Position numbers and translations under genes: made by a program
Virus record (IMG/VR): IMGVR_UViG_3300042503_001656
Coordinates: 62,001 to 118,036 of that record
Reading direction: 5' to 3' (one strand)
Length of the DNA stretch: 56,036 bases
Source of the DNA: an uncultured virus (IMG/VR IMGVR_UViG_3300042503_001656)
Taxonomy: Duplodnaviria > Heunggongvirae > Uroviricota > Caudoviricetes
Shown: piece after piece, positions 495 to 55,927 of the stretch
Numbering within the stretch: position 1 is the first letter of the stretch
Layout of the letters: every line of letters starts with the position of its first letter
The notes under the pieces: generated by a model
Seen by the model: only the letters and a program-made list of their open reading frames with translations
The model's database searches: none
Told to the model about the DNA's origin: nothing

Positions 495-6062
<5,568 letters not shown>

Positions 6063-20953: not shown

Positions 20954-22611
20954 GGGTTTACAAAATTACCATTATCAAGAATTTCGTCAAAATTCATAGT
21001 CGGATTTTGTTTAGCTCTAGCGTAAGCAGCTTCGCGGCCAGTAACCACAATAACAGAATTGCATTTTGCATTAAATTCTATAAATCCTCTTGCAGCAGCT
21101 CGAGTTAAAAAGTCAATCGTAAGTCCTGTCCTTAATGCCAAACTTGTACTTGGTTTGGTTCTGCTACACAGCGTTCCTTCTCTTGGAGTACGTGGCGGTA
21201 ACTCTACAATTGGCGTAAGTTTTGGAAACTCAATAAGTTTTATTAGTTCTTTCGGATACTCAGTCAATGTTATGTCGCATGAAGCCCTGCTTATTGCCCC
21301 AGTTGAACTTCTGTACACAGATGTAACGCTAAAGTCAGCTATGACAAACAGTGAACCGCTACCCGAGTCTTTGTTAAATGGGTATCTAACGGGTTCTTGT
21401 AAGAGTTTGTCAAAACCCATAAACACAACAGGGAAAGGGCTTGAGGCCATTTGCCTAAGTGTTTTCAAATCGTTATCTACACTTGTTGTTATTACACCGT
21501 TGTCAAGCGCCCTATCAAGACTTCCCTCAGCGTTTGGTGCAACTAAAAAGCTAAACGAAACACTCATTAGCTTGTAAGACTTCCAATCAACCATCGGCCT
21601 ATTTGCAGCGCGGTCAATTGGCGACCATTCAGAACCAATGCTTGTATAAGAAATTTGGTTTGGTCTATGAAGAAACTCGTATGTGAGCTGAGGCTGTCCA
21701 GAAGTTGTTGTCTGTACAAGTTTTGGCGCTTGGGAAGTAGAAATAGTTACAGAGCCAGCATTAACTGTTCGACTTAAAGCAGGTGAGGCGACAGTTACCG
21801 CTATGTTTTGACTTCTTGGTGTTTGCCTGGCAATTCTTGCACTTGGCATAATTAATGAATTTGCTGCTCTTGTTGAAAGTGCAGCAGCTGAATTTGCATT
21901 TACAAGAGCAATTGCCTCAGCTCTTGTGTTCCCTCTGGCTATTAGTTCATCAATTTTAGCAAGCCTAATTGATTCTGCAACGTTAGCCATTAAAGATTCG
22001 TTGCTTTGACCAGATGTGTCTCTTGTAAATAAACTGTCAATCAAATATTGACTGTCGGTAAACCCAAAAGTTTCTAAATTTCCAAATGTATAAAATCTAT
22101 TGTCAAACGGGTGATACCAATATGCAGGAATAATTAGGTTGCCGTTATCATCGTATGTGTTTGTGTACGTTTGAGGGCTTTCAATCCAAACCTGAATATT
22201 ATTGTAAGAATATGGATTTGTTGACGCAGGAAGAGATGCAGAAACAGGGTATAGCTTTGTTCTGCTTGTTGCAACAAAAAGCTTTGTTCCATAGTACTTA
22301 TGTGTATAAACACTAAACCTGTCGGGGTAGTACCTGCGGGTTGGTTTTATGCCTATTTCTGTACGCGGTTCGTATCTTGTTCTTTCGGCGGGAACGTTTT
22401 CATCTCCAGGCATATATTGCTTGTACGCAGTGAGGGCAGGAAGAGGAAGCCAGTATTCAATTTCATTAATTCTTAAATCGGTGCCATTTAAGATGCGTTT
22501 GTATAGATGAAAAATTGGATACCCAGGGTACACAACACCAGGACCGGGTTGAGTTTTTCTGACTTCTTTGTAGTAATAGGTTTCTTGAATTGGCTGAGGA
22601 GATATAGACAT
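20950..22611 (-). CDS. Tail tube initiator (P2 gpU/CIS-tube-like domain) protein
   Basis: YEFLHRPNQISY...WSPIDRAANRPMVDW...FVIADFSV...RASCDITLTEY; directly downstream of the tape measure. Confidence 0.55.
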   Translation of the reverse strand: MSISPQPIQETYYYKEVRKTQPGPGVVYPGYPIFHLYKRILNGTDLRINEIEYWLPLPALTAYKQYMPGDENVPAERTRYEPRTEIGIKPTRRYYPDRFSVYTHKYYGTKLFVATSRTKLYPVSASLPASTNPYSYNNIQVWIESPQTYTNTYDDNGNLIIPAYWYHPFDNRFYTFGNLETFGFTDSQYLIDSLFTRDTSGQSNESLMANVAESIRLAKIDELIARGNTRAEAIALVNANSAAALSTRAANSLIMPSARIARQTPRSQNIAVTVASPALSRTVNAGSVTISTSQAPKLVQTTTSGQPQLTYEFLHRPNQISYTSIGSEWSPIDRAANRPMVDWKSYKLMSVSFSFLVAPNAEGSLDRALDNGVITTSVDNDLKTLRQMASSPFPVVFMGFDKLLQEPVRYPFNKDSGSGSLFVIADFSVTSVYRSSTGAISRASCDITLTEYPKELIKLIEFPKLTPIVELPPRTPREGTLCSRTKPSTSLALRTGLTIDFLTRAAARGFIEFNAKCNSVIVVTGREAAYARAKQNPTMNFDEILDNGNFVNP

Positions 22612-25600: not shown

Positions 25601-27722
25601 CAGGCGGGTAAGGTGCTCCACCCTGCCCTGTTCTTCCAACTTCTCCGGTACCCGGAGTTTTTGCAACAAAAGCTCCCGGATTCCAGTACCGTGTACCGTC
25701 TTTTTTGGTTACCCAGTTACCTCTACCGACAAGCTTTGCGTCAGGGTTAGGGTAATCCTTGCCCCAGGTAATTGGCCTTCCACCCGCATCAACTTCTCCG
25801 GTGCGTGTATCTCCAGGCCACCTACGTCCTCCATACAAGGGACTACCGTGCGGGTCATAAAGTGGTTTACCCCCTCTTCTTACGGTAACGGGGACGCCTG
25901 GTGGAATAGCTGGCGGTCTTTGTGGGCCGATAGGAACAGGTCCGGTGGGTATTGGTCTTGGTGGAGTCCCCGGTGGTGTTCCTGGTGGTGTTCCAGGTGG
26001 CGTTCCCGGTGGCCCGCCCGGTCCACTTGGTCCTACTGGTGGACCTCCAGGCCCTCCTGGTCTTCCACCATTAACAATAACGCTTCTAGCTGTTACGGTC
26101 ATCGTATTTACTGGTGCGCGCTCTCTGCCCAAAAAACCACCAGTATTGCCCTTCATCTGACGGCCCAATATCAAGAGAGCCATATACGCCATTGGCCCTC
26201 CGAGAATGCTGCTGAATTTAGAAAGCAAGCCGGTCATCATTCCAACAACCTCGGTAATACCTTTAATTACATCGCTCAAAAATGGAAGAGCATCAGAAAA
26301 TGCTTTAGTAAAAACATCCTGCAATTTAAATAGTTCTGTTATTAAAGAACCGAGGTTGTTGCCTATTTCTACAAATGTTTCTTTGTTACTGATGGCTCCT
26401 TCATTAAAATCTTTGAAAGAATCCAAAAATCCAGATTTCAATGCTGAAAGAATTGGTTTGAATATTCCTTCTACGGCCCTTGCGCCTTCAATAAAAGGCC
26501 TAAGCTCTTCTCTGGAATTTTTAAACCATCTAGAAAACTTCTCCCATCCGCCAGCCATGTTTTTGAAAAATCCATCAGTCTTTGGAAGCCACTCGCGAAT
26601 AAGCTTTACAAAGAAGTTTGACATTTTTTCGACTCCGCTTACTATTCCGTCGAAAAAAGAATCATTTCCAAAATCAGAAAGCGCCCCACTTACGCGAACA
26701 AGGTCTGTTCTAATAATCCTAAAAATCTTTTGCATTGCAACTTTGGCTGGCTCAAGAAACTGTTGACCAAAGTCTCCGAACTCAATTTTTAAAAGATTAA
26801 AAAATGATTTTGCCTGTCCAATGAGTGTCGAGTTAACAGCTTCAAATTGACCAGCAACTCCACCAGCCTTGGCGAGTTCGCCAGACATGATAAGTTCCTT
26901 CATCTGCTTCTTGCTGGTTACTTTTGCATCTTTGAGCGCTTTTTCCATTTGTGGACCAAGCGCTTTTGCGGCTTGTTTAACGCTAGCCATGCTTGTCTTA
27001 GAGTTATTGAGAGCCTCAATAAGAGCCCCAACTTTGTCAGCCGCCGCTGCTGGGTCTTGACCCGCTGCTCCAAAGTCCATGAGGTTCTTAATCATGGCTC
27101 CACTTTGTGCAATTTGCGAGGACTTCATCGACTTAGCCATTGATGCGTAAGCTTTGTTAAGTGCATCAACACCAAGACCTGCCAGCTGAGCATCGGCTTG
27201 AAGGGTTCGCATTGCAACACGAACCTGGTTTGTTCCTGTTATGTATTCCCCTGCTCCACCTGCCGTGTACGCATGCATTGCGGCTTGTTGTTCGCGAATA
27301 GCGGCAGTGGCAACTCCAATTGCAATCGCTGCGCTTGCGGCCGCACCGGCCATGGCTGTCATGCCCCAGGAATAGGCTTTGTGCAACCACTTTCCTGCAA
27401 TAAATAGAGCATGAATTCCCATTAAAGCAGCAGAAAATAAACCAAACTGAAGAAGCGTTGATTTAAGAGCAAGACCCAGGACTTTAGTTAGTCCTGTGCC
27501 CATCATTTTTATGCCCTTGTCTACAGAGTCGAACACTTTGCGTGTTGCCACGCTGGTGGTTACCAAGCTTTTTGATACAGTTGCTACCGACCTAGCACCA
27601 CTGCTTAGCTTTTTTCCTTGCCTATCAAGCCTGTCGATGGCTTTGCTGAGAGTCCTGACTTCAAGAGCACCCTGAAGGGCACCCTTTACCTCAATATTGA
27701 CTGTTGCTTCAGCCCTGGACAC
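22611..27722 (-). CDS. Tape measure protein, 1703 aa, with Pro/Gly-rich insert and C-terminal M15-like peptidase domain
   Basis: Long Ala/Gly-rich helical protein with hydrophobic glycine-zipper stretches, downstream of the tail chaperone; C-terminal ITSSYR...SDHVTGRAID...RHLH. Confidence 0.88.
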   Translation of the reverse strand: MSRAEATVNIEVKGALQGALEVRTLSKAIDRLDRQGKKLSSGARSVATVSKSLVTTSVATRKVFDSVDKGIKMMGTGLTKVLGLALKSTLLQFGLFSAALMGIHALFIAGKWLHKAYSWGMTAMAGAAASAAIAIGVATAAIREQQAAMHAYTAGGAGEYITGTNQVRVAMRTLQADAQLAGLGVDALNKAYASMAKSMKSSQIAQSGAMIKNLMDFGAAGQDPAAAADKVGALIEALNNSKTSMASVKQAAKALGPQMEKALKDAKVTSKKQMKELIMSGELAKAGGVAGQFEAVNSTLIGQAKSFFNLLKIEFGDFGQQFLEPAKVAMQKIFRIIRTDLVRVSGALSDFGNDSFFDGIVSGVEKMSNFFVKLIREWLPKTDGFFKNMAGGWEKFSRWFKNSREELRPFIEGARAVEGIFKPILSALKSGFLDSFKDFNEGAISNKETFVEIGNNLGSLITELFKLQDVFTKAFSDALPFLSDVIKGITEVVGMMTGLLSKFSSILGGPMAYMALLILGRQMKGNTGGFLGRERAPVNTMTVTARSVIVNGGRPGGPGGPPVGPSGPGGPPGTPPGTPPGTPPGTPPRPIPTGPVPIGPQRPPAIPPGVPVTVRRGGKPLYDPHGSPLYGGRRWPGDTRTGEVDAGGRPITWGKDYPNPDAKLVGRGNWVTKKDGTRYWNPGAFVAKTPGTGEVGRTGQGGAPYPPAPTAGSSTRPIMMVQRGYQFIDSTPAGPSSPIDAARFSSGATGGGAGGGGGMPGPGGPGTAPPGAGGPGTQGAYSRRGFLGRIFDGSRQQAQGNTGVGQDLFRGKITGRRFATLDESTGEVLNLSRKIDPVTGQRIATVGARYDAQTGFVDTKGQTFRNKIKYAGLTSRSRRNSALGSAILGNDEKGISGVNRSMGAKMGVGLGMGVASQYMAPEAQGAMAMGAMVGQFNPLAGLAVGLGGAALNSRTAAGGAMTGAGAGAAIGTMIAPGIGTAVGAALGAITGAVAGFAGGMRQRAKESKEAMGSFLDGIATRQIMNAKDKVLRQEADAAAGVDMTGRTGAYEGIAGETAAAYGNLSKALKERGFSGDYGKSTWEQTKGGMGTGAAIGGGLGVATGAIAGSVGGPIGSLVTAATFGSIGAVLGGVVGGITGLTKGLFGRGERKKKQEKDYKILKEISEDPAFKGIITPEEMAAISKDKGAGLTKLSKELPERLKAADTISKQQGARMELLKDMSGKSGAEIEVLAKKMGVDLYDATLKTSDIVEKLGLTMVKTAKEMKEANIDVSLSAIATGFDEIIKRVQAPEIYDERGTALGDTIRGGGDTLSVLNALRAFQESSIGMTDNPITDFYAQQRQIGTLANPGDLFKPGGAFADINPADFFTPEVTEALTKTSTETEKGLISNASAQVQGMLGGMGRYGNTTKMNEAISKMSAENRERFLSDVESGIFQITDPFANMTDAEAKKLYTSKGAKSKAHYQGMLLNQQFANYGVTNAGLIVRAQDTDQTNAVAKEMKTASTTFKEAVEKFSRDMSTAFGPEAAKPEWWSKEAMKEIMQTDTTTPRGGVVGDTTSSRLSQTMDRHKAINSSIPGKRSITSSYRTYGLGSLNSDHVTGRAIDLVGQNLGSYAVATRNAGGFAEFHGSGAGRHLHAVPGPGALGDTLTPASNQMGVATQATVTSGGNSFTFHINGGQNNPEEIANMVMAKIKTTEQRIRERI

Positions 27723-42209: not shown

Positions 42210-44288
42210 ATGGCATGGAACGCTTCAACGAACAAGTCGCTGAATAATCAAGCACAAAAAGACATTGGACCTGGAGCACCAGTAGCCCAAAATCCCGGCT
42301 ATGCAGGCAAGCCGTACAGGGACTCCTGGGATATTGAGCGTGCCTATAGAGAAGGCATGCAGAAGGTTACATGGGTGTCTAGGTGTATCGATGCCATTGC
42401 TGGAAACCAGGCAAGACTGCCGATAATACTCAGAAAAGACAACTCACCTCATGGTGAAATTCTTTCAATCAGAGAGTCAAAAAAGACAAATCTTCTTAAT
42501 ATTCTAAACTCAAAGTCTAATGTTGGAGAAAACTCCTACATTTTTAGATACAGACTTTCTGCTCAGTTGATGCTTGGCACCAGGGGTGCTTTTATTGAAA
42601 AAGTAAGAGGACGAGACGGCGGAATAATTGGCCTCAACCTATTACCTCCTCAGTCAACCTCCCCAATACCAGACCCTAAAAAGTTTGTTTCTGGCTACGA
42701 AGTTCAAATGCCCACAGGAAACAAGGTCTACCTGAAGCCAGAAGACGTTTGCTGGGTGAGAAGACCTCACCCAATCGACCCATACTTGTCACTGACCCCA
42801 TTGGAGGCCTGTGGCGTTGCGATTGAAATAGAAAACCTGGCAAAGCTTTACAACAGAAACTACCTATTAAACGACGGTAGACCGGGTGGTTTGCTTGTTC
42901 TTCGTGGAGAAATCGACGACGACGACAAAGAAGAATTGAGAAGCCGTTTCCGTGGAAACCTTTCACGCGCTGGATATACCTCTGTAATCGCTTCCGACGA
43001 CGGTGTTGACTATGTTGACACTTCAGCAAACCCAAGAGACGCTGCGTACATACAGATGCGTCAAATAACAAAGGAGGAAATCCTTGCTTCATTTGGTGTT
43101 CCAGAGTCGGTTATCGGTAATGCTGCTGGTAGAACTTTTAGCAACGCTTCGGAAGAAATTCGTGTCTTTTGGATGGAGACGATGCTTCCCCATTTGGAGA
43201 TTCTTTCACGGGCTCTAGATGAACTAGATGAAGACAACTATGTTGACTTCAATGTTGACCAAGTGCCCATTTTGATGCTTTACGAGCAGGAGCGCCACCG
43301 CTACTTGATGGACGAATTCAACGCAGGTCTTATCAGCAATAACGAGTACAGAATAGGCTCAGGTCGCAAAGAAACAGAAAGCGACCTTGCTGACTCGCTC
43401 TTGGCTAATCCAAACCTTATTCCTATTGCAAATACGAAGAAGAAGATGGAAGAGCCTTCTCAGGCACAGGTTCCAGGGGCACCAGGACAGCCTGGGATGC
43501 CCGGAATGCCTCCAGGTGCACCCGGCATGCCTCCGATGCCAGGAATGCCTCCAGGACCGGAAGCACAGCCAGCACTTGACCCAAATACGATGGCTGGGGC
43601 AATGGCAGAAGTATCTGGAGCACAAGCAGGTGGAGAACTGGCACAATCTCCAATCCCAGGAATGCCTCCAGGAATGATGACCGGAGCAGAGCCAGTACCT
43701 CCTGGTGCTACCTCTGCTGAGTCGCCAACCATAATGACAAAAGACGCCCTCGAAGCAATTTCCCAAAAGCAAGAAATCGAAAGATGGGAAGAGATACTTG
43801 TCAGAAGCATGGAAAGAGTCATGGAAAGACAACAGCGTGTTGTTCTTGAGAAGTCAAGTGGAGCAAAAGCAAAGAAGGCTTTGTTTGCTGGAACCCTAGA
43901 TATCCCATCTGTGCTTCACTCAGAGACATGGGATAGGCAATTCGATGAGGACATCAGGCCGGTAATTACGGCCATAGTCAAAGAATCGTTAAAAGCTTCT
44001 ACATCAATCGAGAAAAAGTCCGCGAAAAGTTGGGAAGTAGAGTCTGACATCATTGCTCAAGTTGATTCTCAAATGTTACGAATCAAGAGCTTAAACCAGG
44101 ATTTGACAGAGGAAATTACTTCCCTCATGTTGTCTTCTCTGAATGTTTCTGACGAAGACCAGCGAGCTGGCGCTTTTAGGTCAAACATCGTGTCTTTGTA
44201 TACAAATGTGTTGGCAAAACGGCTTCCGGAGATAGCTAGCGAGGAATCTAGGCGTGCCTGGACTTACGGAAAATTCATCGCTAGATAG
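42210..44288 (+). CDS. Portal protein (HK97 family) with Pro/Met/Gly linker and C-terminal extension
   Basis: WVSRCIDAIAGNQARLP, GLNLLPP, LSLTPLEA, NDGRPGGLL, EILASFGVPESVIG, TFSNA. Confidence 0.92.
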   Translation: MAWNASTNKSLNNQAQKDIGPGAPVAQNPGYAGKPYRDSWDIERAYREGMQKVTWVSRCIDAIAGNQARLPIILRKDNSPHGEILSIRESKKTNLLNILNSKSNVGENSYIFRYRLSAQLMLGTRGAFIEKVRGRDGGIIGLNLLPPQSTSPIPDPKKFVSGYEVQMPTGNKVYLKPEDVCWVRRPHPIDPYLSLTPLEACGVAIEIENLAKLYNRNYLLNDGRPGGLLVLRGEIDDDDKEELRSRFRGNLSRAGYTSVIASDDGVDYVDTSANPRDAAYIQMRQITKEEILASFGVPESVIGNAAGRTFSNASEEIRVFWMETMLPHLEILSRALDELDEDNYVDFNVDQVPILMLYEQERHRYLMDEFNAGLISNNEYRIGSGRKETESDLADSLLANPNLIPIANTKKKMEEPSQAQVPGAPGQPGMPGMPPGAPGMPPMPGMPPGPEAQPALDPNTMAGAMAEVSGAQAGGELAQSPIPGMPPGMMTGAEPVPPGATSAESPTIMTKDALEAISQKQEIERWEEILVRSMERVMERQQRVVLEKSSGAKAKKALFAGTLDIPSVLHSETWDRQFDEDIRPVITAIVKESLKASTSIEKKSAKSWEVESDIIAQVDSQMLRIKSLNQDLTEEITSLMLSSLNVSDEDQRAGAFRSNIVSLYTNVLAKRLPEIASEESRRAWTYGKFIAR

Positions 44289-44386: not shown

Positions 44387-47300
44387 ATGTCCTCTTCTAA
44401 TAAAAAATCCGACATTCAGTACAAGGCTGCACCGCAAGGAATGGTGAATTTAGACGAGGCCCAAGGCATCGTCGAATGTTTTGTCGCTGGGATAGGCAAC
44501 AAAGACTCTGTTGGTGACGTTTGCGCACCAGGGGCTTTCGGCAAGAGTCTTACCAGAAGGAAGCCACGAGTCGTATGGGGACACAACTGGAACGACCCCA
44601 TTGGCAAGGTCATCGACATGTACGAGGTTCCACCCAACGACCCTCGTTTACCAGCAAAGATGAAGGCTGCAGGAATTGGCGGTCTTTATGCTCGCGTTCA
44701 ATTCAACCTTATGTCGGAAAAGGGTCGTGAGGCGTTTGCCAATGTTGCTTTCTTTGGTGAAGAGCAAGAGTGGTCTATTGGTTACAAAACAATCAATGCA
44801 AAATTTGACCCACAGATGCAAGCAAACATTCTTTATGAAGTAGAGCTTTATGAAGTGTCTCCAGTTCTTCATGGAGCAAACCAGCTGACAGGAACAATTT
44901 CAGTAAAGTCAGAAGAGCAGCCATCTGGCGTTTCAGTAATTAATGCACCAAGCATTGATGGGTTAAACGTAAATGAGCTTTCTTCTATTCTTGAAGCACT
45001 TAAGGCTATTTCTTCTTCCGTTTCAGAAGACGAAAAGTGTGGACCAGGAATGATGCCACAAGGAATGCCAGGAATGCCTTCTGGCGGACCAGGTATGCCT
45101 TCTGGGCCGAAGCCAATGCATACAAACACTCCTGGTGCAGCACCAAGAGAAGTTGTTAAACCACAAATTCCATCCATGCCAGAAAACCCAATGACCGTAG
45201 CGCTTCGCCGTGAACTCGCGACTCGCACTGGCTCAAATGTAATTGTGCGTTCAGCAAGTGACAGTGTCGTCGTTTTTGACAGGGTGCTGGCTGACGGAAC
45301 ATCAAGCACATACAGATTGCCTTTCCACTATGCCGGTGGAGAGTTTATGTTCGGCAAGCCAGAAAAAGTTCAGTCTCAAGCAAACTACGTCCAAGATTCT
45401 CCTTTGTCTGAAATCATGGTTGAAGCGCTTCTTTCTGGCCCCACTGCAGGCGCAGAAAAGTCTTTAATCTCTTTTGACGACCAAGAGTGGGGTGAAGGAT
45501 TTGGGCAATCAATTCCGTCACAGCAAGTTGATGCTTCAACTTTGAATAGCGTTATCGCTAATCTTCAAAAAATAATCGAGCAGAAATCTGAATATGTTGT
45601 TCAAGTTGCTCCAGAACATGCTTTTGAAGTAAAGCAAGCGATAGACCCAATTCTTGATTTCTACAAGGTTGACGCAACCATCAATGAAGATGGAATTGTT
45701 GTTAAGTCACTCAATGAAGACTTTTTGAACGCTCTTGACATCGCCACAAAAGGCGTATTACGCAGTCTTGGCAACCTTGCGGGTAGAGCAATAGACCGCC
45801 CTAATATTGGCAGAAACAGAAGAGACAGAACACCCAACCTTGCATCACGAGGCCCTGGAATTGGTTCACGAGGAGCGGTAGTAAGACTCCGTGATGGAAG
45901 CACGTGGGACCCAAAAAACGCACCGGATAGAAACCGTAATGGCATTGTAGGTGAAGGCCTCTTTGACAGTAGCGGAAGGTCGTTGGCACAGCCAGACCCA
46001 ACACCAGAGGGGCCAGATTCTATCCGGGGAGCAAAGACACCAAAGTCACCGCAGACCCCTAAAAGGCAGGCAGCGGCTGCCGCAAAAAGAAACGCTACTG
46101 TAAAAAGAACTTCTGGGCAGCCCCAGAAAGCAAGGCAGCGTCTTTCTTCAGGCGGAATTGACCAAGAAGTTGACGATACACCAATGCTTGAGGAGAAGTT
46201 CAAGAAGGAAGTCTCTGGCTTTTTGTCTGAAATAGGAACAAACCGTAATGAGATAGAAAACATTCTTGACCTGTGGGAAAACAACGATGCAGACCATGAC
46301 AAGTACATGGAAGAGCATGGAGCTGGTTCAAAAAACTTTGCTGAAAACGTGGCTTATGCAGCGTCAGCAATGTACGAAGACTACATCTCTGATGCGGGAG
46401 ATAGGCAGGCTGACCGTCGTGCCGAGGGAGGGCGTTTCTCGTCTGGCGAGTGGACAAAAATTCCTGGTGTTGGCTATGAGATGGATGCCCCAGACATTGA
46501 AGGTGTTTATGAAATACAGGAAGGCCTTGACGGGAAGTTCTATGTAGTCAGATACTCCGATGGCAACCGTAATGGTGGCCAAAACATGGGCATATATGAG
46601 CATGATAAGCCTTTCTCTACTCTTGCAGCAGCAAAGAAGTGGTCTGAAAAAGACTATGCGCAAGCAGCTGATGAATATATGCCAGATGGCATGGAGGATG
46701 CAGATTCAGAAGATGGCGAAAGGTTCTCTTCTGGTCAAATTGACTTCGACAAGATAGGCGAATCGGGCCTCAGAGAAATGCGCCATGTTGAGCGCAACCC
46801 TCTTAGATTTGATACACAGGCAGACAAAGATGCACGCGCTGCGTACGAACGGGTTGTAGCAAACTTTAGAGCAAACAACGGTTTCTTCCGTGAAGTACCT
46901 ATGTATGCAGGTGACAAAAAGTGGCACAGCGAAGACTGGTTCCGTGGCCGCGAGATGGCAGAAAACGTTGCCACCTTGCGATTTGGTGACCCAATTGACC
47001 AAATGCCGTTCTTCGATAAACCAGGCAAGCCATCAAAAAGAGAATTCTTCGAGAGAACTACAACTGTTGATTACAGGTCCTGGTACATGGCAAAAATTCC
47101 AGCCATGACGCAAGAGTTGGACAGAGTGCTTGCTTCCGACGCCTATTCAGATGAATACAAAGAAGCATTCCTAGAAGGAATGAGGACATTCTTCTACGTG
47201 AATAGGCCAAACCTTCAGTACGCTCCGAAAGATACACAGGCGCAGTATGAAGAATGGCTTCAGCGTTCAGGTCTCGGCTGGAAGGGTAGATACTCTACTT

Positions 47301-50300
47301 CTGGTCCAAAATTCGAAGACATGGAAACAAACAGATTTTCTTCTGGTGCTACAGGTAGAGATAACAAGGTAATTGAGTCTTACGAAAACGTTGACGACCT
47401 CAAAGAAGCAATGTTTAGTGCTCTCTGGGAAATGTCACTAAAGGGTGACATTGATGGTGTTACGGCAGAAGAACTTGCAGATGCGATTAGCGTAAATACG
47501 AACTGGGTAGAACCACATCTTGAAGATGTAAAGAATTACGCGCTTGATGCAAGAAGAAGTATGGATGAGTATTACTCTTCCATTCCTGAGCTAACCGACG
47601 AAGAGATGGACCAGGAATACAGGGACTGGCTGGATTCACAGGCTGGCAAAGACAGCGCTCGTGCCATGACTATTAAAGAAAAATTCGACAGCATGACCGA
47701 CGAAGAGGCAGCTGATTATGTTGCTTGGCTCGAAGAAGAGACATGGAGAGACAGAAGCGATACGTACTTCTCATCTGGAGAAAGAGGAACCCCTGAAGAG
47801 AGGGTAGAGCTCTATAACAGGAGAGCCTCTGAAAAGAATGCAATTCTTGAGTCCATGACACCAGAAGAGCTTGCAGAATATGCAGAGCAGTGGAATGAAG
47901 ACCATCGCGAAGATGAAAGATTCTCGTCTGGCCAAGTCAATAGACCGAAGTCAACAAAAACCGGAGAAGAGTTTATTGGCCGTAGCTACGGTCTTCATGA
48001 TTTTTTTGTTTACGACGAAGAAGACGATTTTGAGAATATTGACAAGGCGATTGTAGATTCACTTCTCAAAGGCGAAAGAATGTCCCTTGATGACCTTCTG
48101 CTTGAAGTGCGAGGCATCAATGACCCCGACCTCAGCGGAGAAGCACTGGTCCGCAGACCAGACCAAATGGGCGCAAACGCAAGACGCGTTGCTGAAGCTG
48201 TTGCAAACAATACATCCGTTAGTCCATCGTTGGCCAACCAGAAGGCTGGAAGGGAAGACATACTTCACTTTAGTTACAATGGTAAACAGCGTTCTATATA
48301 CCCAGAGACTTTTTCAACAAGCAAAAAGGGTGTTGGCTATTTTGTTGGCTGGGACGAAACCGCAGATAACGGCAATGGCGCATATAGAAGTTTCAATATA
48401 GACAAAATAGAAGGCCTTATATCTAGCGCAATACCTCCACATGTAGACAGGGCAGCAAGGTATACAGATTATTCATGGAACATAACTGACTTCTCTGATG
48501 AAGATAATCAAAAAATTCTTGAACAGATGCGACGTACTAAAGAGTTCAGGGTTCTTGATGACGCGCAAGACCTGATAGACGATGAGGTGAGCGCAGGAGG
48601 CACAAGAGTTGCAGGCTCGACTCTTGATATTGCGGAAAAAGAAGCCCAAGCAGCTTTCCAAGATGCTCGCAATAGACAAATTGACAAGATGGTTGCCGAC
48701 GGCAAAATTAAGCCGCTATCAAGAGATAGTAGATTCTCTTCAGGAATGGTTAACGACGGTCTTCCAGACGGATACTGGGACACCGCAGACGACATGGCAG
48801 ATTCTTATGGCGACAGAGAAGACTACACAGACGCAAGGTTCTCCTCTGGTGGAATGCCAAGCACTAAAGAGCAAGCAGACCTAATAGCTTTTGCTAGGTC
48901 AAAGCCTGGCACTTTTACAGACAGTGTTGTTTCTCAATTTGACAGAAACAGAAGACTGTCAGAAAAGCAATGGGACGCAATACGTAGAATGATGCGCGGT
49001 GCATCTGGTGGTAAGGCTGCTCCAAAAGCAGATAAGCCAACTGCTCGTTTTTCTGGAAAGCGTCGTCAAATTGTAGATATTGCCGATATTGAAAAGTATG
49101 ACTACCCAGAGCTTCCTGCAAAGATAAAGCCAACACCAGAACAAGACAGAGCTATCGATGCGATGATGACTGGTGCAGACGTAAAGATTGGTGCTTTAGC
49201 AGCAACAGGCAAGACGACAACTGTCATTAACTTTGCCAACCGCCTCAAGGCTAAAGAACCAGACGCAAGGGTTGTCTATCTCGTGTTTAACAGAAACGCA
49301 AAAGACGACGTAGAAAAGCGTGGAATGCCAGGAAACGTTTCTGTCTCAACGATGGACGGAATTGCTTACAGAGCAATGGACGCTATCAACCCAGAAATGA
49401 CCAAGAAGAGCTTTGACAAAAAAGAGGGCCACATAAAGCCAATCAACTCTTTCAAAGATAGAGCTAAGTATCTTGGTACAAAGGGAATGGTTTCCCAAGG
49501 CGAAGAATTGACCGATGTTGATGTTTATAGAATTGTAGCTAAAGCGATAGATGCATATTCAATAAGCGACGACAAGGAAATTGGACCACAACACTTTACT
49601 GGCCCATACAACGGTTCATACAAGGTGACAGACACTTCATTGCTTCCCGAGTTGCTTAAGTATGCAAACAAGATGTGGGAAGACATGAATCTTCCTAGAG
49701 TCAATGGTGCCACCAGGAAAGACCAAAAAGGAATGCTTCCTGTAAACAACACACATCTAACAAAGATGTGGGCATTGACAAATCCAGACATAGGCGAAAT
49801 TGCTGAAGTCAATGTAGCAATGGTTGACGAAGCTCAAGACATGAACCCAGTTTTTGCTGGAATATTGAGGAACTCAAACCTTCAGAAAATCTACATTGGT
49901 GACACAAACCAGGCAATTAACGCATGGCGTGGAGCAGACGGAACAACGCTTGCAAATGTAGAAGCAACATACGACATGCCAATTACTGATTCGTTCAGAT
50001 TCGGCAAGAACGTAGCGAACATGGGCAACAGATTCCTTTCGCTTCTCAATACAAAAGAGCGCATGACCGGAAGAAAGACAGACAAGTCTGGAAATCCTGT
50101 TGACGGAAGAATTGGACAGGTTGATAACCCAACAATGATTTTGACACGCTCTAATGGCGGAGCCATCGCTGCAACCATGGAAGTGTTTGCAGATGGTGGA
50201 ATTGTTTACGGAAGCCAAAACTTCAAGAGAGATTTGGAGAACTTCTTAAACAACATCGAATGGATGCAGAATGCCCAAAAGGGCAAACCGTTCTATACAG

Positions 50301-53300
50301 ACGTATATGGAAAGCAAGTATTTTCAGCTCCTGAGTTCAGTCAAGACCTTGACGGAATTACAAACATTGCAGACTTCAATAAGGCTATTGAAAAGGGCGA
50401 TGACAACAGACTAAACATGCTTTCTAAGCTGATGAACGATTACTCGCTTGAAGACTTGAGAGAATCTCTCAACAACATCATTACAGACAAAAACAAGCTT
50501 CCAAAAAATCGTGATGAGTATGTTCACATTCAGACAGCCCACACATCCAAGGGTCTTGAGTCGCCACGAGTCAAGATTTGGTCAGACTTTAGAAAGCCAA
50601 AGAAGCTTGAGAACGGTGAATGGCAATACCCTGATGAGCAGGAGATGAGGCTTTCTTATGTTGCCGTAACAAGAGCAGAGGAAGAACTTGACCTTGGTTC
50701 ACTTAGTTGGATTCTTGACCACACAACAGAAGAAGACGGTATGCCAAATACTTTCTCTTCTGGAAGAAGCAAAGCAAGAGGCAACAGGGGTGATGGCAAG
50801 GGAAGACAAAAACCATGGTCGGCAGAAGATAGGCAAAGATTTGCGGACAGGGACATTCTTCGTTCACAAACACGCCCAGGAAAGCGTCGTCCAGGTCCTT
50901 CAGCAAACGAATTCTCGTCTGGTGCTGAATTTGATTTCACTCCAGAAGAGCTCAATAGGTGGCAAAAAGCTAGCGAACATGCCAGCGCATATGGCGATTG
51001 GGAAAATCTTCCAGAAAACAGAAAAAACGGATATCTTCGTAAATTTAACGGAGATGAAAATCTTGCTCGCGAGCAATTTAACGTGGAAAGAGATTTGGCA
51101 GACTTTGCTGCAGATGCACAATTCGACAAAACAAATTCACGATTCTCTTCTGGAGGCCGTTTCGCACCACAACCGCAAGCACCAGAGGGCTGGGAAATGC
51201 CAGAAATTGGTGATGACGGCGAAATAAAGAATGGACCGCTTAAGGGTTACTACATTCGTGAATTCGGTGACCCTTTTGTACCAGGAAGAAAGTACGTAAG
51301 CTATGGTGGCACACACTACAGCACTACCGATGAGCACAAAAATACCCTAGTTGAATGGGGTGACTACGAGCCTGGCTACACCATCGACAGAAACATAGGC
51401 TCTGACGAAGACATTAGGGGTATTGCTGACTCTTCCGAGCAAGAAGAAATGGCGCAGTATGGCGACGAAGGTTTGTACTATGGCAATAGTTCACGTGGGC
51501 GATACGACCCTCAAAATGATTATGAAACTTCAGTAACCGACGACTCCCATTCACCAGAAAACGGTGAAGACCACATCGGTAAAGCCGTATCCGTAACGGA
51601 TGAAAATGGAAACAAATTCTACGGTGTAGTTGTTAGAGGTTGGGAACCGGAATACGAAGAAGACTTAGATGTTGATGAGGATGGGTGGGCAACCCCGAGC
51701 ATGAACATACAAGACGGTGGCATGGTAGTTCTCGCTACTCATGATGCTGACGGCAAAAAACTTGATAAACCAGTAGTTGTTGAGGCAAGTTTTGGTCTTG
51801 AAAATGAATACGCCCTCGTATCAAATGTTGAGAGAGGTGGAGACGATTACGAAGGGCCAAAGGTCAATGTATCAAAAGGCCGTGTAAGTGAAGAAACCCT
51901 TGACGAAGCCAAAAAGCTTTATGAAGAACTGGACCCATATAGAAATGGTAAAGCCGACGAGTTCAGGCGTCAAGGAGCCTTGATAGATAGAACATGGAGA
52001 ATGCCGGGAGGCGAAAAAGAGCGCAGGGAAAAAGCTGCCGAAGAAGCTTACAGAAGAAGCCCTGAAGGAATACAAGAGCAAAGAGAAAAGCTAGAAGCAT
52101 CCATATCGGCTATAGAAGACAAGATAAGAAGCGCGGAGTCTTCTCGTGAATCTCTCATGGAGAGGCTGAACGACGTTTCTGAAAGTGGAGACAATGTCCT
52201 TGCTTCAAAAATGGAAGAAATATTAAGAGACAGAGAGGGAGCGGTACGACTCCTCCAAGAAAAACTTGAAGAAGCAAAAGCTGAACTAGATGCTTTTAAT
52301 GGCGAAGGAAACAGGCTTTCTTCTGGAAGATTTGCGCCTGATGGACAATCGGGTTCAAGGCTTCAAAGAAGACTTTCTTCTGGCGATGTTTTTGGCCCAC
52401 CACCAGGACAGTCGGCAAGATATGACCGCAAGAAGCAAGTCGAAGCAACGATGGGTGCATTCCACTCTGACCCAGGAATGGCTCGTGTATCTAGCGACGC
52501 AGAAGGCATTTTAGGAAAGATACCTTCTGGCAAGAACTCGCATGTTCTTAACCTAGAAGCAGCAAAGAGAATAATTGCAGACCCTGACGGTGAGTATTCA
52601 GCAGAAACTGGATGGCCAGTTGATGCCGGAAGACTGCTTGATTTTATTCAAATTGATAACCCTCTTGGTGGAAGCCCAAGCACTCTTCGTGACAAAGACG
52701 ACGCACAACTTATTGCAAGGGTTTTGGGTATACCAGCATCGGACGCTCAAGACATGCTTGATGGGAAGCCTGTATACATTGCCAGCTCAACTGCGGCTGA
52801 CATGTTTGACAACCTTTCAAGAACAAAAGAGTACACATCAAGCGTTGGTGGATTAAACGACGTAGCGAGAGTTTGGGGATTTGATGGCGCTCCAAAGTGG
52901 GTGCGTCATAGCGACATTGCTACCCCCGAGTTTGACCTCGATGAAAACGACAGAGTTAACTGGTCGCAGGTTAAATGGGATGGCCTCTCAAGGGCTGACT
53001 TTGATGCAGCAGTAAGAAGAGGGAACAACCCACCAGAACCCGTATACACATCTCCTGTTGAGTTTTTCAATAGTGATGCAATCGCCAGCAACCCCAAGTG
53101 GGACGCTCGTGGTGGCTCATTCAGGAACCCAACAGTCGATGCTGAGTTCACTGCAACACCAAAGAAGGTTTCCAGAGCCGAACAGTTGGAGCCAGAAAGA
53201 TTTGTTTCTCAGGCAAGAGCTGGAGAAAGGGTTGCGCGCGCTGACAAAGATTTTATGGACGAATGGACCAACGGAAGTCATGGAATTGGTGCAGCACAGC

Positions 53301-55927
53301 TCATGCAGATGCTTGGATTGGAAAGAGATTCAGAAGGAGACCGCATAAGTAGCCAAGACGTAAGAAAGCTTCTTGACGAAATAAACAAGATTAAAGAAGA
53401 AGCTGGAAGCGGACTTGTTCCTGCTGCAAAGAGAGAAGATGGCAAATTTAAAGAATCACTTGAGCTGGACACAAAGAAGTCTCCAATCAATGATGAAATA
53501 ATGCATGCACTCATTGTCTCTGGAAGATTCAAGAACATGAAAGAAGCAGTTGCTTCGCTTGGTGACCCAAGACTTGATTCTCTTGCCGCAGAATACGACT
53601 CCCGCATGCTTGTCGATGCAGCATTCATAAGAATCAAGGACCATCTAAACAAGGTTGGAGCAGCTGACCAAAAGAAGATTCTTTCTAAGGTAATCACTGC
53701 CGCTCTTGGTCGCAAGACAACACTTGAATCTCGCGTACAGGAAGGCAGAGCATCCATCAAGGGTGTAATGAATTCAGACGCAATGATTGGCGATGAAAAG
53801 CTTTCCGAAGTAATTGGCATGGTCAACGAGGTTCTTGAGGCAAGGGGTCTTGAGACAATCGACAAGGATGCATTGTTCCCAAGGGACGAGGCAGGCGGAT
53901 TTGTGAACAACTTGAGTGCTTCGGCTCCAGGCGCAACGAGGCTTGCTTCTGGTCAGAGGTTTGTAGCCAGAACCGCATCAAGCAGAAGAGCTGATGCCGG
54001 AATGGATGCTGCAGCAAGAAGAGCAACAGATAGGCCAACGTTCTCAAGCGGTGCGAAGCCAGCATTTAGGGACCCAGACGGAAAACTGAACGCCACAAAC
54101 ATGAGAGATGCTGCATCCGAAGCAACAATTCCAGAAGGAACAAGGATAAGAAAAACTCCTGGCCAAAATATAGAAGACTTTGAAAAAGCAGTTAAGACGA
54201 GGGCCGAAATAGCAGAAACCCTAAACATAGATACTTCAGCAATAAATGGCTTTACTGTCTACGACGTTATAGACGAGCTTAAAAAGGCAGGAATACCTGA
54301 AGATACCGCAGAAGACCTTGTCGATAAGCTTGTAGAACTAGATTTCTATATTGATGCAATCGAGGAGAGATTCTCTGAAGCCAGAGAAATCATGGATGAA
54401 GCTATTGAAGAAGCTGAAGATGCTATGGACAAGATTGCGAAACTAAGAAAAGAGCGTGCCGACATTATTAATAGGTACGGCGAAGAAGATGGACAGCCAC
54501 TGCTTGAGGTTGTTGATGAAAAAATTAGCAGAGCGACCAAAAAGCTTGACGATGCCTACCAAAGAGGTATCGGCAATGAGGATGCAAGAATGGGAACTCT
54601 CTATTCTCAGGTTGACGAAATTCTGAGTAATAATCGTGGATGGAGAGAGTATTCGCCATCCCCATATAGAGATAGTACAAATCAGAACCTTGCTGCTCTT
54701 GAATTAGCAATTGCAAAAGCTGGCGGAGTAAAGAAAGCCGTACCAGTTACGGGAATAGATTTCGGAGTTCCAGAAGGCACAAGGCTTTCTTCAGGAAAAG
54801 CAGAAGAGTATTACCAAAACCTCACAAGCCACTTGATAAACATGATTGAAAAATCACAAAAAGAAGGCGGTAAGTGGGAAGCACCATGGCATAAGGCTGG
54901 AAATCTTCCAAGAAATGCTTCTACAAAGAATATGTATTCGGGTGGAAACATCTTTGCTCTTATGCTTGCAGCCGAAGAAAAGGGCTTCACAACCTCTCAC
55001 TGGGGTGGATTCCAGCAGTGGAAGAAGCTTGGAGGAAGCGTAAAGAAGGGCGAAAAGGCAACCATCATCCTCATGCCAAAGCAGATGTTTGGTGAGGAAA
55101 TCGACCCAGACACAGGGCAGAAGGTTAGAAAGTCAAAGGGCGTATATTTTACGACCGCACATGTTTTCAACCTTGACCAAGTTGAGGGAATTGACCGCGA
55201 TGAGTTCTTGAAGCTGCCGACAGATGCCCTGACACCAGAGCAGAGAGTCACAAAGCTTGAAGACGCAATCAAGGAAGTTGGTGCAACAATCAAGACCGGA
55301 GATGGAAGTAGGGCTTACTACTCTCCGCGTGAAGACCATGTTGTGATGCCTCCATTCGAACTGTTCAAGTCCCCAGAGGGATACTACGGAACACTCGCCC
55401 ATGAGCTTGTTCACTGGACAGGGCATTCGTCAAGACTTGACAGAAAGAATATGAACCAGTTTGGTTCTCCTGACTATGCAAGAGAAGAGCTTATTGCTGA
55501 ATTTGGCTCAGCTTTCCTGTTGGCAATGTTTGGTCTTTCTGCAGAACCAAGAGAAGACCATGCCCATTACTTGGCAAACTGGTTGCAGGTTCTTCGCGAT
55601 GAGCCAAATGCTCTGCAGGAAGCAGCAACAAAAGCTCAAGAAGCGTCAAAAATGCTCATTGAAAAAATGAAGGCAGTTCTGGAAGAGATGGGCGAAACAG
55701 CATCTTCTGCTGAATCCGACATAGAAGAAAAGAATGCAAACATTTTTACAGACCCGCTTTACGGAATAAAGAATGAACTTGTTGAATGGAGCAAAAACAT
55801 TGAAAATGCTCCATATTTCATTAAGTCCTTGACAAACCCCGACGAAGAACACGGAAATGTAAATAGAAGATGGGAAAGAATTGCAGAAGCAGCGCTATTC
55901 CTAAACGGCATAAACAACAAAATCTAG
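44387..55927 (+). CDS. Giant prohead-protease-headed polyvalent polyprotein (~3846 aa): HK97-type protease, WYL, UvrD/SF1 helicase, ArdC, with repeated R[F/L]SSG linkers
   Basis: One uninterrupted ORF in the head-protease position after portal; AAGGAG RBS before ATG 44387 (the ORF track starts at 44333); domains recognised by motif. Confidence 0.9.
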   Translation: MSSSNKKSDIQYKAAPQGMVNLDEAQGIVECFVAGIGNKDSVGDVCAPGAFGKSLTRRKPRVVWGHNWNDPIGKVIDMYEVPPNDPRLPAKMKAAGIGGLYARVQFNLMSEKGREAFANVAFFGEEQEWSIGYKTINAKFDPQMQANILYEVELYEVSPVLHGANQLTGTISVKSEEQPSGVSVINAPSIDGLNVNELSSILEALKAISSSVSEDEKCGPGMMPQGMPGMPSGGPGMPSGPKPMHTNTPGAAPREVVKPQIPSMPENPMTVALRRELATRTGSNVIVRSASDSVVVFDRVLADGTSSTYRLPFHYAGGEFMFGKPEKVQSQANYVQDSPLSEIMVEALLSGPTAGAEKSLISFDDQEWGEGFGQSIPSQQVDASTLNSVIANLQKIIEQKSEYVVQVAPEHAFEVKQAIDPILDFYKVDATINEDGIVVKSLNEDFLNALDIATKGVLRSLGNLAGRAIDRPNIGRNRRDRTPNLASRGPGIGSRGAVVRLRDGSTWDPKNAPDRNRNGIVGEGLFDSSGRSLAQPDPTPEGPDSIRGAKTPKSPQTPKRQAAAAAKRNATVKRTSGQPQKARQRLSSGGIDQEVDDTPMLEEKFKKEVSGFLSEIGTNRNEIENILDLWENNDADHDKYMEEHGAGSKNFAENVAYAASAMYEDYISDAGDRQADRRAEGGRFSSGEWTKIPGVGYEMDAPDIEGVYEIQEGLDGKFYVVRYSDGNRNGGQNMGIYEHDKPFSTLAAAKKWSEKDYAQAADEYMPDGMEDADSEDGERFSSGQIDFDKIGESGLREMRHVERNPLRFDTQADKDARAAYERVVANFRANNGFFREVPMYAGDKKWHSEDWFRGREMAENVATLRFGDPIDQMPFFDKPGKPSKREFFERTTTVDYRSWYMAKIPAMTQELDRVLASDAYSDEYKEAFLEGMRTFFYVNRPNLQYAPKDTQAQYEEWLQRSGLGWKGRYSTSGPKFEDMETNRFSSGATGRDNKVIESYENVDDLKEAMFSALWEMSLKGDIDGVTAEELADAISVNTNWVEPHLEDVKNYALDARRSMDEYYSSIPELTDEEMDQEYRDWLDSQAGKDSARAMTIKEKFDSMTDEEAADYVAWLEEETWRDRSDTYFSSGERGTPEERVELYNRRASEKNAILESMTPEELAEYAEQWNEDHREDERFSSGQVNRPKSTKTGEEFIGRSYGLHDFFVYDEEDDFENIDKAIVDSLLKGERMSLDDLLLEVRGINDPDLSGEALVRRPDQMGANARRVAEAVANNTSVSPSLANQKAGREDILHFSYNGKQRSIYPETFSTSKKGVGYFVGWDETADNGNGAYRSFNIDKIEGLISSAIPPHVDRAARYTDYSWNITDFSDEDNQKILEQMRRTKEFRVLDDAQDLIDDEVSAGGTRVAGSTLDIAEKEAQAAFQDARNRQIDKMVADGKIKPLSRDSRFSSGMVNDGLPDGYWDTADDMADSYGDREDYTDARFSSGGMPSTKEQADLIAFARSKPGTFTDSVVSQFDRNRRLSEKQWDAIRRMMRGASGGKAAPKADKPTARFSGKRRQIVDIADIEKYDYPELPAKIKPTPEQDRAIDAMMTGADVKIGALAATGKTTTVINFANRLKAKEPDARVVYLVFNRNAKDDVEKRGMPGNVSVSTMDGIAYRAMDAINPEMTKKSFDKKEGHIKPINSFKDRAKYLGTKGMVSQGEELTDVDVYRIVAKAIDAYSISDDKEIGPQHFTGPYNGSYKVTDTSLLPELLKYANKMWEDMNLPRVNGATRKDQKGMLPVNNTHLTKMWALTNPDIGEIAEVNVAMVDEAQDMNPVFAGILRNSNLQKIYIGDTNQAINAWRGADGTTLANVEATYDMPITDSFRFGKNVANMGNRFLSLLNTKERMTGRKTDKSGNPVDGRIGQVDNPTMILTRSNGGAIAATMEVFADGGIVYGSQNFKRDLENFLNNIEWMQNAQKGKPFYTDVYGKQVFSAPEFSQDLDGITNIADFNKAIEKGDDNRLNMLSKLMNDYSLEDLRESLNNIITDKNKLPKNRDEYVHIQTAHTSKGLESPRVKIWSDFRKPKKLENGEWQYPDEQEMRLSYVAVTRAEEELDLGSLSWILDHTTEEDGMPNTFSSGRSKARGNRGDGKGRQKPWSAEDRQRFADRDILRSQTRPGKRRPGPSANEFSSGAEFDFTPEELNRWQKASEHASAYGDWENLPENRKNGYLRKFNGDENLAREQFNVERDLADFAADAQFDKTNSRFSSGGRFAPQPQAPEGWEMPEIGDDGEIKNGPLKGYYIREFGDPFVPGRKYVSYGGTHYSTTDEHKNTLVEWGDYEPGYTIDRNIGSDEDIRGIADSSEQEEMAQYGDEGLYYGNSSRGRYDPQNDYETSVTDDSHSPENGEDHIGKAVSVTDENGNKFYGVVVRGWEPEYEEDLDVDEDGWATPSMNIQDGGMVVLATHDADGKKLDKPVVVEASFGLENEYALVSNVERGGDDYEGPKVNVSKGRVSEETLDEAKKLYEELDPYRNGKADEFRRQGALIDRTWRMPGGEKERREKAAEEAYRRSPEGIQEQREKLEASISAIEDKIRSAESSRESLMERLNDVSESGDNVLASKMEEILRDREGAVRLLQEKLEEAKAELDAFNGEGNRLSSGRFAPDGQSGSRLQRRLSSGDVFGPPPGQSARYDRKKQVEATMGAFHSDPGMARVSSDAEGILGKIPSGKNSHVLNLEAAKRIIADPDGEYSAETGWPVDAGRLLDFIQIDNPLGGSPSTLRDKDDAQLIARVLGIPASDAQDMLDGKPVYIASSTAADMFDNLSRTKEYTSSVGGLNDVARVWGFDGAPKWVRHSDIATPEFDLDENDRVNWSQVKWDGLSRADFDAAVRRGNNPPEPVYTSPVEFFNSDAIASNPKWDARGGSFRNPTVDAEFTATPKKVSRAEQLEPERFVSQARAGERVARADKDFMDEWTNGSHGIGAAQLMQMLGLERDSEGDRISSQDVRKLLDEINKIKEEAGSGLVPAAKREDGKFKESLELDTKKSPINDEIMHALIVSGRFKNMKEAVASLGDPRLDSLAAEYDSRMLVDAAFIRIKDHLNKVGAADQKKILSKVITAALGRKTTLESRVQEGRASIKGVMNSDAMIGDEKLSEVIGMVNEVLEARGLETIDKDALFPRDEAGGFVNNLSASAPGATRLASGQRFVARTASSRRADAGMDAAARRATDRPTFSSGAKPAFRDPDGKLNATNMRDAASEATIPEGTRIRKTPGQNIEDFEKAVKTRAEIAETLNIDTSAINGFTVYDVIDELKKAGIPEDTAEDLVDKLVELDFYIDAIEERFSEAREIMDEAIEEAEDAMDKIAKLRKERADIINRYGEEDGQPLLEVVDEKISRATKKLDDAYQRGIGNEDARMGTLYSQVDEILSNNRGWREYSPSPYRDSTNQNLAALELAIAKAGGVKKAVPVTGIDFGVPEGTRLSSGKAEEYYQNLTSHLINMIEKSQKEGGKWEAPWHKAGNLPRNASTKNMYSGGNIFALMLAAEEKGFTTSHWGGFQQWKKLGGSVKKGEKATIILMPKQMFGEEIDPDTGQKVRKSKGVYFTTAHVFNLDQVEGIDRDEFLKLPTDALTPEQRVTKLEDAIKEVGATIKTGDGSRAYYSPREDHVVMPPFELFKSPEGYYGTLAHELVHWTGHSSRLDRKNMNQFGSPDYAREELIAEFGSAFLLAMFGLSAEPREDHAHYLANWLQVLRDEPNALQEAATKAQEASKMLIEKMKAVLEEMGETASSAESDIEEKNANIFTDPLYGIKNELVEWSKNIENAPYFIKSLTNPDEEHGNVNRRWERIAEAALFLNGINNKI
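44450..44910 (+). other. Domain: HK97-family prohead maturation protease (peptidase S78)
   Basis: GNKDSVGDVCAPGAF, VVWGHNWNDPIGK (His 44582), EWSIGY (Ser 44774), LYEVSPVLHGAN (Glu 44852). Confidence 0.9.
48254..48420 (+). other. Domain: WYL-like
   Basis: ILHFSYNGKQRSIYPETF...GYFVGWD...YRSFNIDKIEGL matches the WYL consensus. Confidence 0.75.
49124..50698 (+). other. Domain: UvrD/Rep-like superfamily 1 helicase
   Basis: PTPEQ, ALAATGKTT, YLVFN, VDEAQD, IGDTNQAINAWRGA, DSFRFG, LTRSN, TAHTSKGLE, LSYVAVTRA. Confidence 0.92.
54800..55680 (+). other. ardC: Domain: ArdC anti-restriction protein (ArdC-N ssDNA-binding + zincin metallopeptidase)
   Basis: WEAPW...PRN...YSGGN...WGGFQQW...VKKGEK...VFNLDQ; AYYSP..D...YYGTLAHELVHWTGH..RLDR...YAREELIAE...YLANW. 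Confidence 0.92.

Follow-up and report, generated by a model that had tools for sequence, protein, structure and literature searches.

The prohead protease of phage HK97 is a small protein that carries no cargo, and to our knowledge HK97 has no second motif class. The HK97 capsid protein is cut at K103/S104 (PMC10275583), the T4 prohead protease recognizes L/I-X-E (PMC9026906), the SPN3US enzyme cuts at A-X-E with Ser preferred at P1' (PMC10052503), and the assemblin-fold protease of PrV cuts at YLQA-T and VQA-S (PMC4498786). Here, we report that a stretch of 56,036 nucleotides from an uncultured virus of the Caudoviricetes (positions 62,001 to 118,036 of the IMG/VR record IMGVR_UViG_3300042503_001656; this whole stretch is called the window) encodes a giant open reading frame (ORF; 44387..55927, + strand; 3846 aa, no internal stop) in which a prohead protease is followed by a scaffold-like region, a cargo tag and then 15-16 modules delimited by a recurrent junction motif, R[F/L]SSG.

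Polyvalent phage proteins resemble this giant protein in that unrelated conflict domains, including ArdC-N with a metallopeptidase (MPTase) and a helicase, are joined in one chain that is encoded among head genes; release by embedded peptidases has been proposed for them, with viral polyproteins as the analogy (Iyer et al. 2017, PMC5512222). One polyvalent subtype has an assemblin-like peptidase at the C-terminus, whereas the protease here is N-terminal, and the main text of that paper, in its available portion, describes no repeated junction peptide and uses the words "linker" and "tape measure" 0 times (PMC5512222). Such proteins are predicted to be cut into domains, and the family described here gives exact candidate sites. 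Like a polyvalent protein, the giant holds several conflict domains that vary between relatives and is encoded among virion-packaging genes; like a polyprotein, it combines an embedded protease with a repeated junction at module borders. In specificity, the capsid and scaffold sites suggest Lys, and the junction is hydrophobic-x-Ser and is also found on the tape measure. HK97 gp4/gp5 share with this locus the S78 family, the position after the portal gene and a Lys boundary between scaffold and mature capsid protein (PMC10275583). T4 gp21, SPN3US gp245 and phiKZ gp175 are similar in that numerous head proteins are trimmed by the prohead protease at a motif of three residues (PMC9026906, PMC10052503), but there the cuts strip propeptides (13 of 14 SPN3US sites) and do not separate mature modules, and the cargo comes from separate genes. 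The T4 internal proteins have a shared capsid targeting sequence comparable to the cargo tag here, although in T4 it is the part that is removed and the tag here sits after the putative Lys cut. The tape measures of T5 and lambda are cut during tail morphogenesis, and in T5 the cut splits off a metallopeptidase part; the available text describes no motif common with head cargo (bioRxiv 2022.09.20.507954). ArdC has been reported in huge phages in a study whose available part leaves proteases unmentioned (bioRxiv 2025.02.27.640493). Our literature searches found neither an N-terminal prohead protease with motif-punctuated cargo nor a motif common to head cargo and tape measure; their coverage excluded most subscription journals, and the supplementary architectures of Iyer et al. 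2017 may include such fusions. Judged against these systems, the architecture appears to work like a polyvalent protein combined with T4-type processing of head cargo. The architecture is real and, within the literature searched, previously undescribed.

A repeated peptide at the borders of exchanged modules

[F/L]SSG occurs 15 times in the giant protein, which accounts for 15 of the 16 SSG tripeptides there, and every five-mer listed in the original prediction, the earlier sequence-only reading of this ORF, was recovered at its position. On the + strand these are RLSSG at 46139..46153 (motif 1), RFSSG at 46433..46447 (motif 2), 46721..46735 (motif 3) and 47333..47347 (motif 4), YFSSG at 47765..47779 (motif 5), RFSSG at 47918..47932 (motif 6), 48731..48745 (motif 7) and 48836..48850 (motif 8), TFSSG at 50750..50764 (motif 9), EFSSG at 50909..50923 (motif 10), RFSSG at 51140..51154 (motif 11), RLSSG at 52313..52327 (motif 12) and 52370..52384 (motif 13), TFSSG at 54038..54052 (motif 14) and RLSSG at 54782..54796 (motif 15), together with a variant RLASG at 53939..53953, to which module ends in G005 and L008 align. 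Motifs 4 to 6 and 15 are placed by sequence and comparison with relatives, motif 10 by sequence and model, and motifs 11 to 13 by sequence. Shuffling the protein 10,000 times gave a mean of 0.16 copies and a maximum of 3. FSSG alone is present in 11 copies, against at most 5 for the commonest 4-mer of any kind in 500 shuffles, and the 35 other ORFs of the window that were tested (13,900 aa) hold only 3 copies of [F/L]SSG, two of them in the tape measure.

The border statistics cover 28 lineages and exclude L177, which is partly masked, as well as L153 and L162, whose long cargo is free of the motif. A motif lies no more than 5 aa from 24.0% of the 2097 alignment ends, versus 6.2% at random, and 78 of 132 rearrangement breakpoints contain a motif (45 of 79 once repeats are merged) versus 17.8% at random. 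The motif thus marks the edges of modules exchanged between lineages, in line with the bracketing that had been proposed.

Individual modules illustrate this. The helicase module, with its UvrD-type SF1 helicase (49136..50689, +; Pfam UvrD, aa 1584-2101), measures 638 aa in this protein, and counterparts of 648 aa in L064 and 652 aa in L144 match it end to end at different positions; the module's closest stand-alone relatives are about 490-520 aa and cover 83-85% of the 638 aa. The RFSG at 49046 that had been taken as the upstream bracket lies outside the low-confidence regions of the model and is aligned with PFSG/PFSN/KYSG in most relatives, so that RFSSG at 48836 is the better choice. The ArdC module (54806..55630, +), composed in Pfam searches of ArdcN (54806-55168, aa 3474-3594) and a zincin MPTase with HELVH (55253-55630, aa 3623-3748), follows motif 15 directly; ArdC begins at residue 1-2 after a motif in nine of the ten lineages with a match, and it is terminal in the window protein and internal in L045, L064, L066 and L144. 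The WYL block seen earlier is less secure at this locus: the WYL-like domain inside module 6 (48122..48439, +) scores E 0.13 in the window itself, and its homologous segments pass the Pfam cut-off in three of four. A 53-aa module has matches in 12 segments of other lineages, and an exonuclease module is found in the protease-led protein of G002 and in a second giant protein of G001. Pfam and PHROG scans of 15 single segments of the giant protein returned nothing named at cut-off.

In structure prediction the motifs tend to fall in linkers, as had been expected. Two AlphaFold models place five motifs in segments with a predicted local distance difference test (pLDDT) score below 50 and a sixth on the border of one, and two of these are near model ends. 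Motif 1 is in a pLDDT<50 segment, motif 2 as well but close to the model end, and motif 7 close to a model start; motif 8 forms the final residues of a pLDDT<50 segment, with folded helices next, and motif 9 is at a low-pLDDT segment edge. The flanks of the motifs are 15% hydrophobic versus 27%.

The giant ORF is no chimera. Over its full length the giant protein is matched at 95-98% by G001, a complete relative of 148 kb, except for a 100-aa insertion in G001 just upstream of motif 3 that begins near a degenerate RLNS, and one contig of run X4 covers 44420-50604 with 13 differences from the window; these independent assemblies rule out an artefact, the refutation that the original prediction had allowed for. 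The four sequencing runs compared with the window are all labelled lake water metagenome, and the sequencing-run search listed no RNA run as carrier.

The motif on other head cargo and the tape measure

Viral contigs were searched and 590 relatives confirmed; 80 were retained and 49, near-duplicates included, were readable for at least 1500 aa; pooled scans comprised 158 proteins from 51 lineages. Relatives of the protease-led giant are common in lake viromes. At least three [F/L]SSG are present in 47 of the 49 readable relatives, as conservation of the motif would have it, and the remaining two spell GLRS. The general motif is [G/R/K]-[L/F/M]-[S/R/A]-S with a lineage-specific spelling (RFSSG, KLSSG, GLSSG, GLRSS, GMRSR, GMASR, GLAST and GFASS were found), and several lineages have tandem copies 6-20 aa apart. 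The family therewith offers a natural specificity series (SSG, LRS, MRS, MAS, LAS, FAS), along with a two-protease question.

The motif is not confined to the protease-led protein. In the head operon of G001, the protease-led giant is followed by a 516-aa protein, a second giant of 3490 aa, several smaller genes and the capsid gene. The second giant (L086:13635 to L087:4104) has 9 motifs and no protease, and the tape measure of G001 has 2 motifs, compared with 15 in the protease-led giant; the remaining ORFs together hold 2 versus 1.99 expected. A motif-bracketed DEDDh exonuclease was also observed in the second giant, as was a C-terminal match to a XopAD-type profile, a domain that we take to be RelA/SpoT-like. 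Spelling agreement between protease-led and other head cargo is 0.455 versus 0.10 when permuted (0 of 5000; 15 of 23 genomes usable).

In the window, a putative tape measure protein (22611..27722, −), assigned by its place after putative sheath, tube and chaperone genes and before the baseplate, with a weak C-terminal M15 peptidase match, carries KLSSG at aa 38 (27597..27611, −; serines AGC AGT, which differ from the cargo copies) and RFSSG at aa 743 (25482..25496, −) in a Gly/Pro-rich linker. In relatives, the tape measure has the lineage spelling at one or both of two places, close to the N-terminus and in a Gly/Pro-rich linker at the centre; examples are two RLSSG in G005, GMRSS and GLRSS in G004, GLASS in G008 and GFASR in G018. 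Concordance of spelling between tape measure and head proteins is 0.39 versus 0.09 (0 of 10,000 permutations; 19 of 22 genomes, with G009, G042 and G049 left out as the motif is lacking on one side), and among the 12 non-SSG genomes it is 0.40 versus 0.155 (3 of 10,000). Tape measure copies number 13 versus 0.81 expected in seven SSG-lineage genomes and 3 versus 1.55 in 14 others.

The earlier idea of a self-processing polyprotein therefore survives in part: the protease-headed modular cargo with the motif at its borders is there, but the motif also marks proteins without a protease, the tape measure included, and hence the unit would be a genome-wide code on (putatively) injected proteins and not one self-processing polyprotein.

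Lys sites, junction sites and their possible readers

The giant's N-terminal domain is an intact HK97-type (S78) prohead protease domain, as the original prediction had it. Pfam PF04586 covers 44468..44899 (+; aa 28-171; 37.6 bits versus a cut-off of 21), and the catalytic residues H66 (44582), S130 (44774) and E156 (44852), all on the + strand, are unchanged in alignments of 41 and 45 relatives. With TIGR01543 the domain scored 43.8 bits, below the profile cut-off of 59; Foldseek on a 700-aa model gave HSV-2 protease and T4 gp21 as best matches, both weak (E 0.11), and a PDB sequence search with the protease domain returned 0 matches. The gene lies directly after the portal gene (42210..44288, +; Pfam PF04860) and shares its operon with an HK97-fold capsid gene in G001 and in 26 further records (27 of 35). 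Proteolytic activity is predicted for the S78 domain, with a specificity of Lys type.

The junction motif is absent from the capsid proteins of all 23 relatives read, and each has K|D at the delta-domain boundary; the same K|D boundary is found in four of four cultured distant relatives, which have no junction motif. A Lys-site pattern drawn from these sequences themselves, [EVIYQ]K[SAD], has observed/expected ratios of 2.0 in the scaffold region, 3.4 in the delta domain and 0.10 in the mature capsid protein. The scaffold-like region of the giant (44900..45751, +) has Lys sites at K174 (44906), K358, K400 and K440 and ends at K455 (45749); K174 and K455 are invariant in 41 aligned rows, and K455 is the putative release site of the cargo. 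Next comes the cargo N-terminal tag (45752..46021, +), with [SAG]-[LIV]-G, a Gly/Arg-rich stretch and a DxDxDG-like motif, ordered in the model at about aa 501-540. The tag is common to 2-4 head-operon proteins per genome in many relatives, with identity up to 82%, and may be a packaging or ejection signal. As a separate observation, LSSR or LTSR stands in the capsid delta domain of nine of nine SSG-lineage genomes read, with different sequences in the remaining genomes; this may be a related site or reflect common ancestry.

The reading that we tentatively prefer has two tiers: the head protease would cut at Lys sites and so release the tagged cargo, and the junction peptide on injected proteins would be read by a distinct activity, viral or host. 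For the first tier, the S78 protease is probably Lys-specific like that of HK97. Inside the prohead it would remove the capsid delta domain, destroy its own scaffold-like region and cut at the invariant K455, which would expose the shared N-terminal tag on the giant's cargo; between one and three further cargo proteins of the head operon have the same tag. Being fused to the protease would then be one of several ways to load cargo. For the second tier, [G/R/K]-[L/F/M]-[S/R/A]-S, here R[F/L]SSG, would be where the cargo chains, and likewise the tape measure, are processed into individual functional proteins (small uncharacterized modules as well as the helicase, ArdC and WYL-like ones). The activity in question, of viral or host origin and distinct from the prohead protease, would gain access to the contents of head and tail either before assembly or at or after ejection. 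Because the same peptide is found on the second cargo protein and on the tape measure, it is probably a cutting signal for injected proteins, and we consider it fairly probable that the motif is cleaved in some form. A fuller version, which we hold loosely as one possibility, is a genome-wide, lineage-specific "ejection code": the peptide would stand at the module borders of every injected protein of head and tail, a second protease distinct from the Lys-specific head protease would read it at maturation or after injection, anti-defence modules would be swapped as cassettes, and the spelling would co-evolve with the reader or the host. If the motif is cut, a DNA phage would here be using a polyprotein strategy to deliver a large set of day-zero anti-defence enzymes, and the arrangement would provide a design rule for getting proteins into capsids and out again.

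It is not our wish to press this proposal too far, and several points weigh against it. Cleavage of the motif is predicted from sequence, and the candidate readers tried fit poorly; the hydrophobic-x-small layout fits known P3-P1 sites of assemblin-fold proteases, which favors the head protease. L153 and L162 have long cargo without the junction motif and SSRS-like repeats instead. The permutation tests treat kin as independent, and the two tape-measure regions used were picked after seeing the data. The low pLDDT of the linkers may come from shallow alignments there, and several modules are only 19-53 aa and themselves of low pLDDT, which is odd for released proteins. Finally, Lys sites in the cargo are not depleted past the control (0.83 and 0.94 versus 0.70), so the sequence gives no sign that the cargo meets the Lys protease.

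Among candidate readers, the ArdC zincin was rejected as a universal one: 16 of the 26 records searched do not have it, many of which are fragments but which include G008 (91% complete) and G007 (88%), and it is also missing from the motif-bearing complete ORFs L032 and L049. An HslV/proteasome-beta-like gene is found in 8 of 20 records and in all three near-complete ones, with the catalytic Thr, Asp and Lys kept in the four copies extracted. It is a weak candidate for the junction reader, since it lies outside the head operon and is also present in phage DSL-LC01, whose 3289-aa head-operon protein is without the repeat. This Ntn peptidase adjoins a WhiB gene at G000:C1:51406-52038 (−), outside the window, at L182:1143-1778 and in DSL-LC01. 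The lineages without the motif, L153 and L162, and G009, in which a 567-aa protease has neither cargo nor junction motif, should be useful negative controls in finding the reader.

The original prediction had the prohead protease itself cut the motif; in the form considered here, the simplest site would be behind [F/L]-S-S, with cutting both in cis and in trans, besides or instead of the Lys sites. This is partly contradicted, and we regard it as rather unlikely. The S78 protease is the sole protease present in every head operon read, assemblin-fold proteases cleave after hydrophobic-x-P1 motifs (T4, PrV, SPN3US), and the change to SSG goes along with altered protease residues near C46, A47 and Y150, but that coincidence is a single branch. 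In a 40-row tree the spelling changes eight times for five classes, while the proteases are 76-95% identical with an invariant active site, and P1 would need to accept Lys and Ser alike. The capsid boundary is of Lys type and motif-free throughout, and Lys sites are enriched in the scaffold. In tailed phages the tape measure is assembled apart from the prohead, and yet it carries the motif without being a prohead component. Modelling the protease domain in complex with a 40-aa stretch that contains two RLSSG motifs gave a score of 0.00, which speaks neither for nor against.

It is likewise unlikely, in our estimate, that the motif is never cut and is instead a short linear signal, a binding handle for packaging or for translocation during ejection, or a site of Ser modification. 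An invariant Ser, exposed linkers, tandem copies and occurrence on both head cargo and tape measure would all suit such a signal, and a conserved 680-aa head-operon protein (L087:6419-8452 in G001) with a C-terminal HipA/PI3K-like kinase resemblance (Atlas 0.93) is a lead in this direction. However, this protein was rejected as an active kinase, as no invariant catalytic-loop Asp is present in 22 aligned copies, and is probably a pseudokinase. A single copy per module border, retained when modules move, is what a release site predicts, whereas a handle needs no such register.

A neutral scar is very unlikely; here modules would have spread by recombining through a short DNA word that they share, and the peptide would be functionless. 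Natural allele swaps do begin in or beside the motif: a replacement in runs X4 and X7 starts at 54051, inside the TFSSG of motif 14, with its far end 76 nt from the next motif, and a contig of run X7 diverges 5 nt downstream of motif 9, although most other loose ends in the public assemblies are far from motifs. TCT is enriched (106 of 196 at each Ser versus 769 of 3354 in the background), and synonymous agreement between motif copies is mildly raised (0.33-0.42 versus 0.21-0.32). Still, all six Ser codons, from both boxes, are used at the motifs and the 12-nt copies are mostly distinct, which with only this mild excess of agreement puts the constraint mainly on the peptide; the tape measure copies follow the lineage spelling with other codons, and genes of one genome seldom have cargo modules in common, the tag aside (such hits in 2 of 24 operon stretches listed). 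An assembly artefact or chance is scarcely credible: the record of the window is a linear fragment of 118 kb whose end lies 109 nt past the giant ORF, before any capsid gene, but the shuffle counts, the full-length match in G001 and independent contigs from public runs speak otherwise.

Cultured relatives, host and neighboring genes

The cultured relatives, Gordonia phages GMA6, Chidiebere and DalanDe and Brevibacterium phage Cantare, have a protease about 39-42% identical, the K|D boundary and a contractile-tail layout, but the head proteins tested show neither a cargo chain at the C-terminus nor a repeated junction peptide, and their tape measures have 0-2 loose matches each. The annotated protease gene of DalanDe has about 1100 aa ahead of the protease domain. 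Because G001 has two WhiB genes and these cultured relatives infect Gordonia and Brevibacterium, the host is probably actinobacterial. With such a host, the hundreds of small, bounded, uncharacterized modules would be candidate host-takeover factors of freshwater Actinobacteria.

In some relatives, a programmed frameshift at the junction of protease and cargo is possible. Runs of 10-11 A's are found close to the cargo junction in L064, L066, L045 and L041, and in G011 (L217-L219) the protease ORF ends at 494 aa, with tag and cargo resuming in another frame across an A-run. This does not apply to the gene in the window, where a search for a slippery run near the cargo start found no run of seven or more A's.

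The G001 gene after the giant (L086:12067-13614; only its start, at about 56020, is in the window) encodes a conserved Cys-rich head-operon protein, 420-630 aa in length, with many Lys sites. PepSY-like domains are leads for it (Atlas 0.86; NCBIfam E 0.035), and a scaffold or a protease regulator is conceivable. On the other side of the giant ORF, a minus-strand terminase (40652-41968) and the tail genes diverge from the head operon, which starts with the portal gene, and this layout recurs in relatives. A tail fibre with collagen repeats is encoded at 495-6062 (+) of the window; it is 1855 aa long here, and the G001 allele is 1671 aa.

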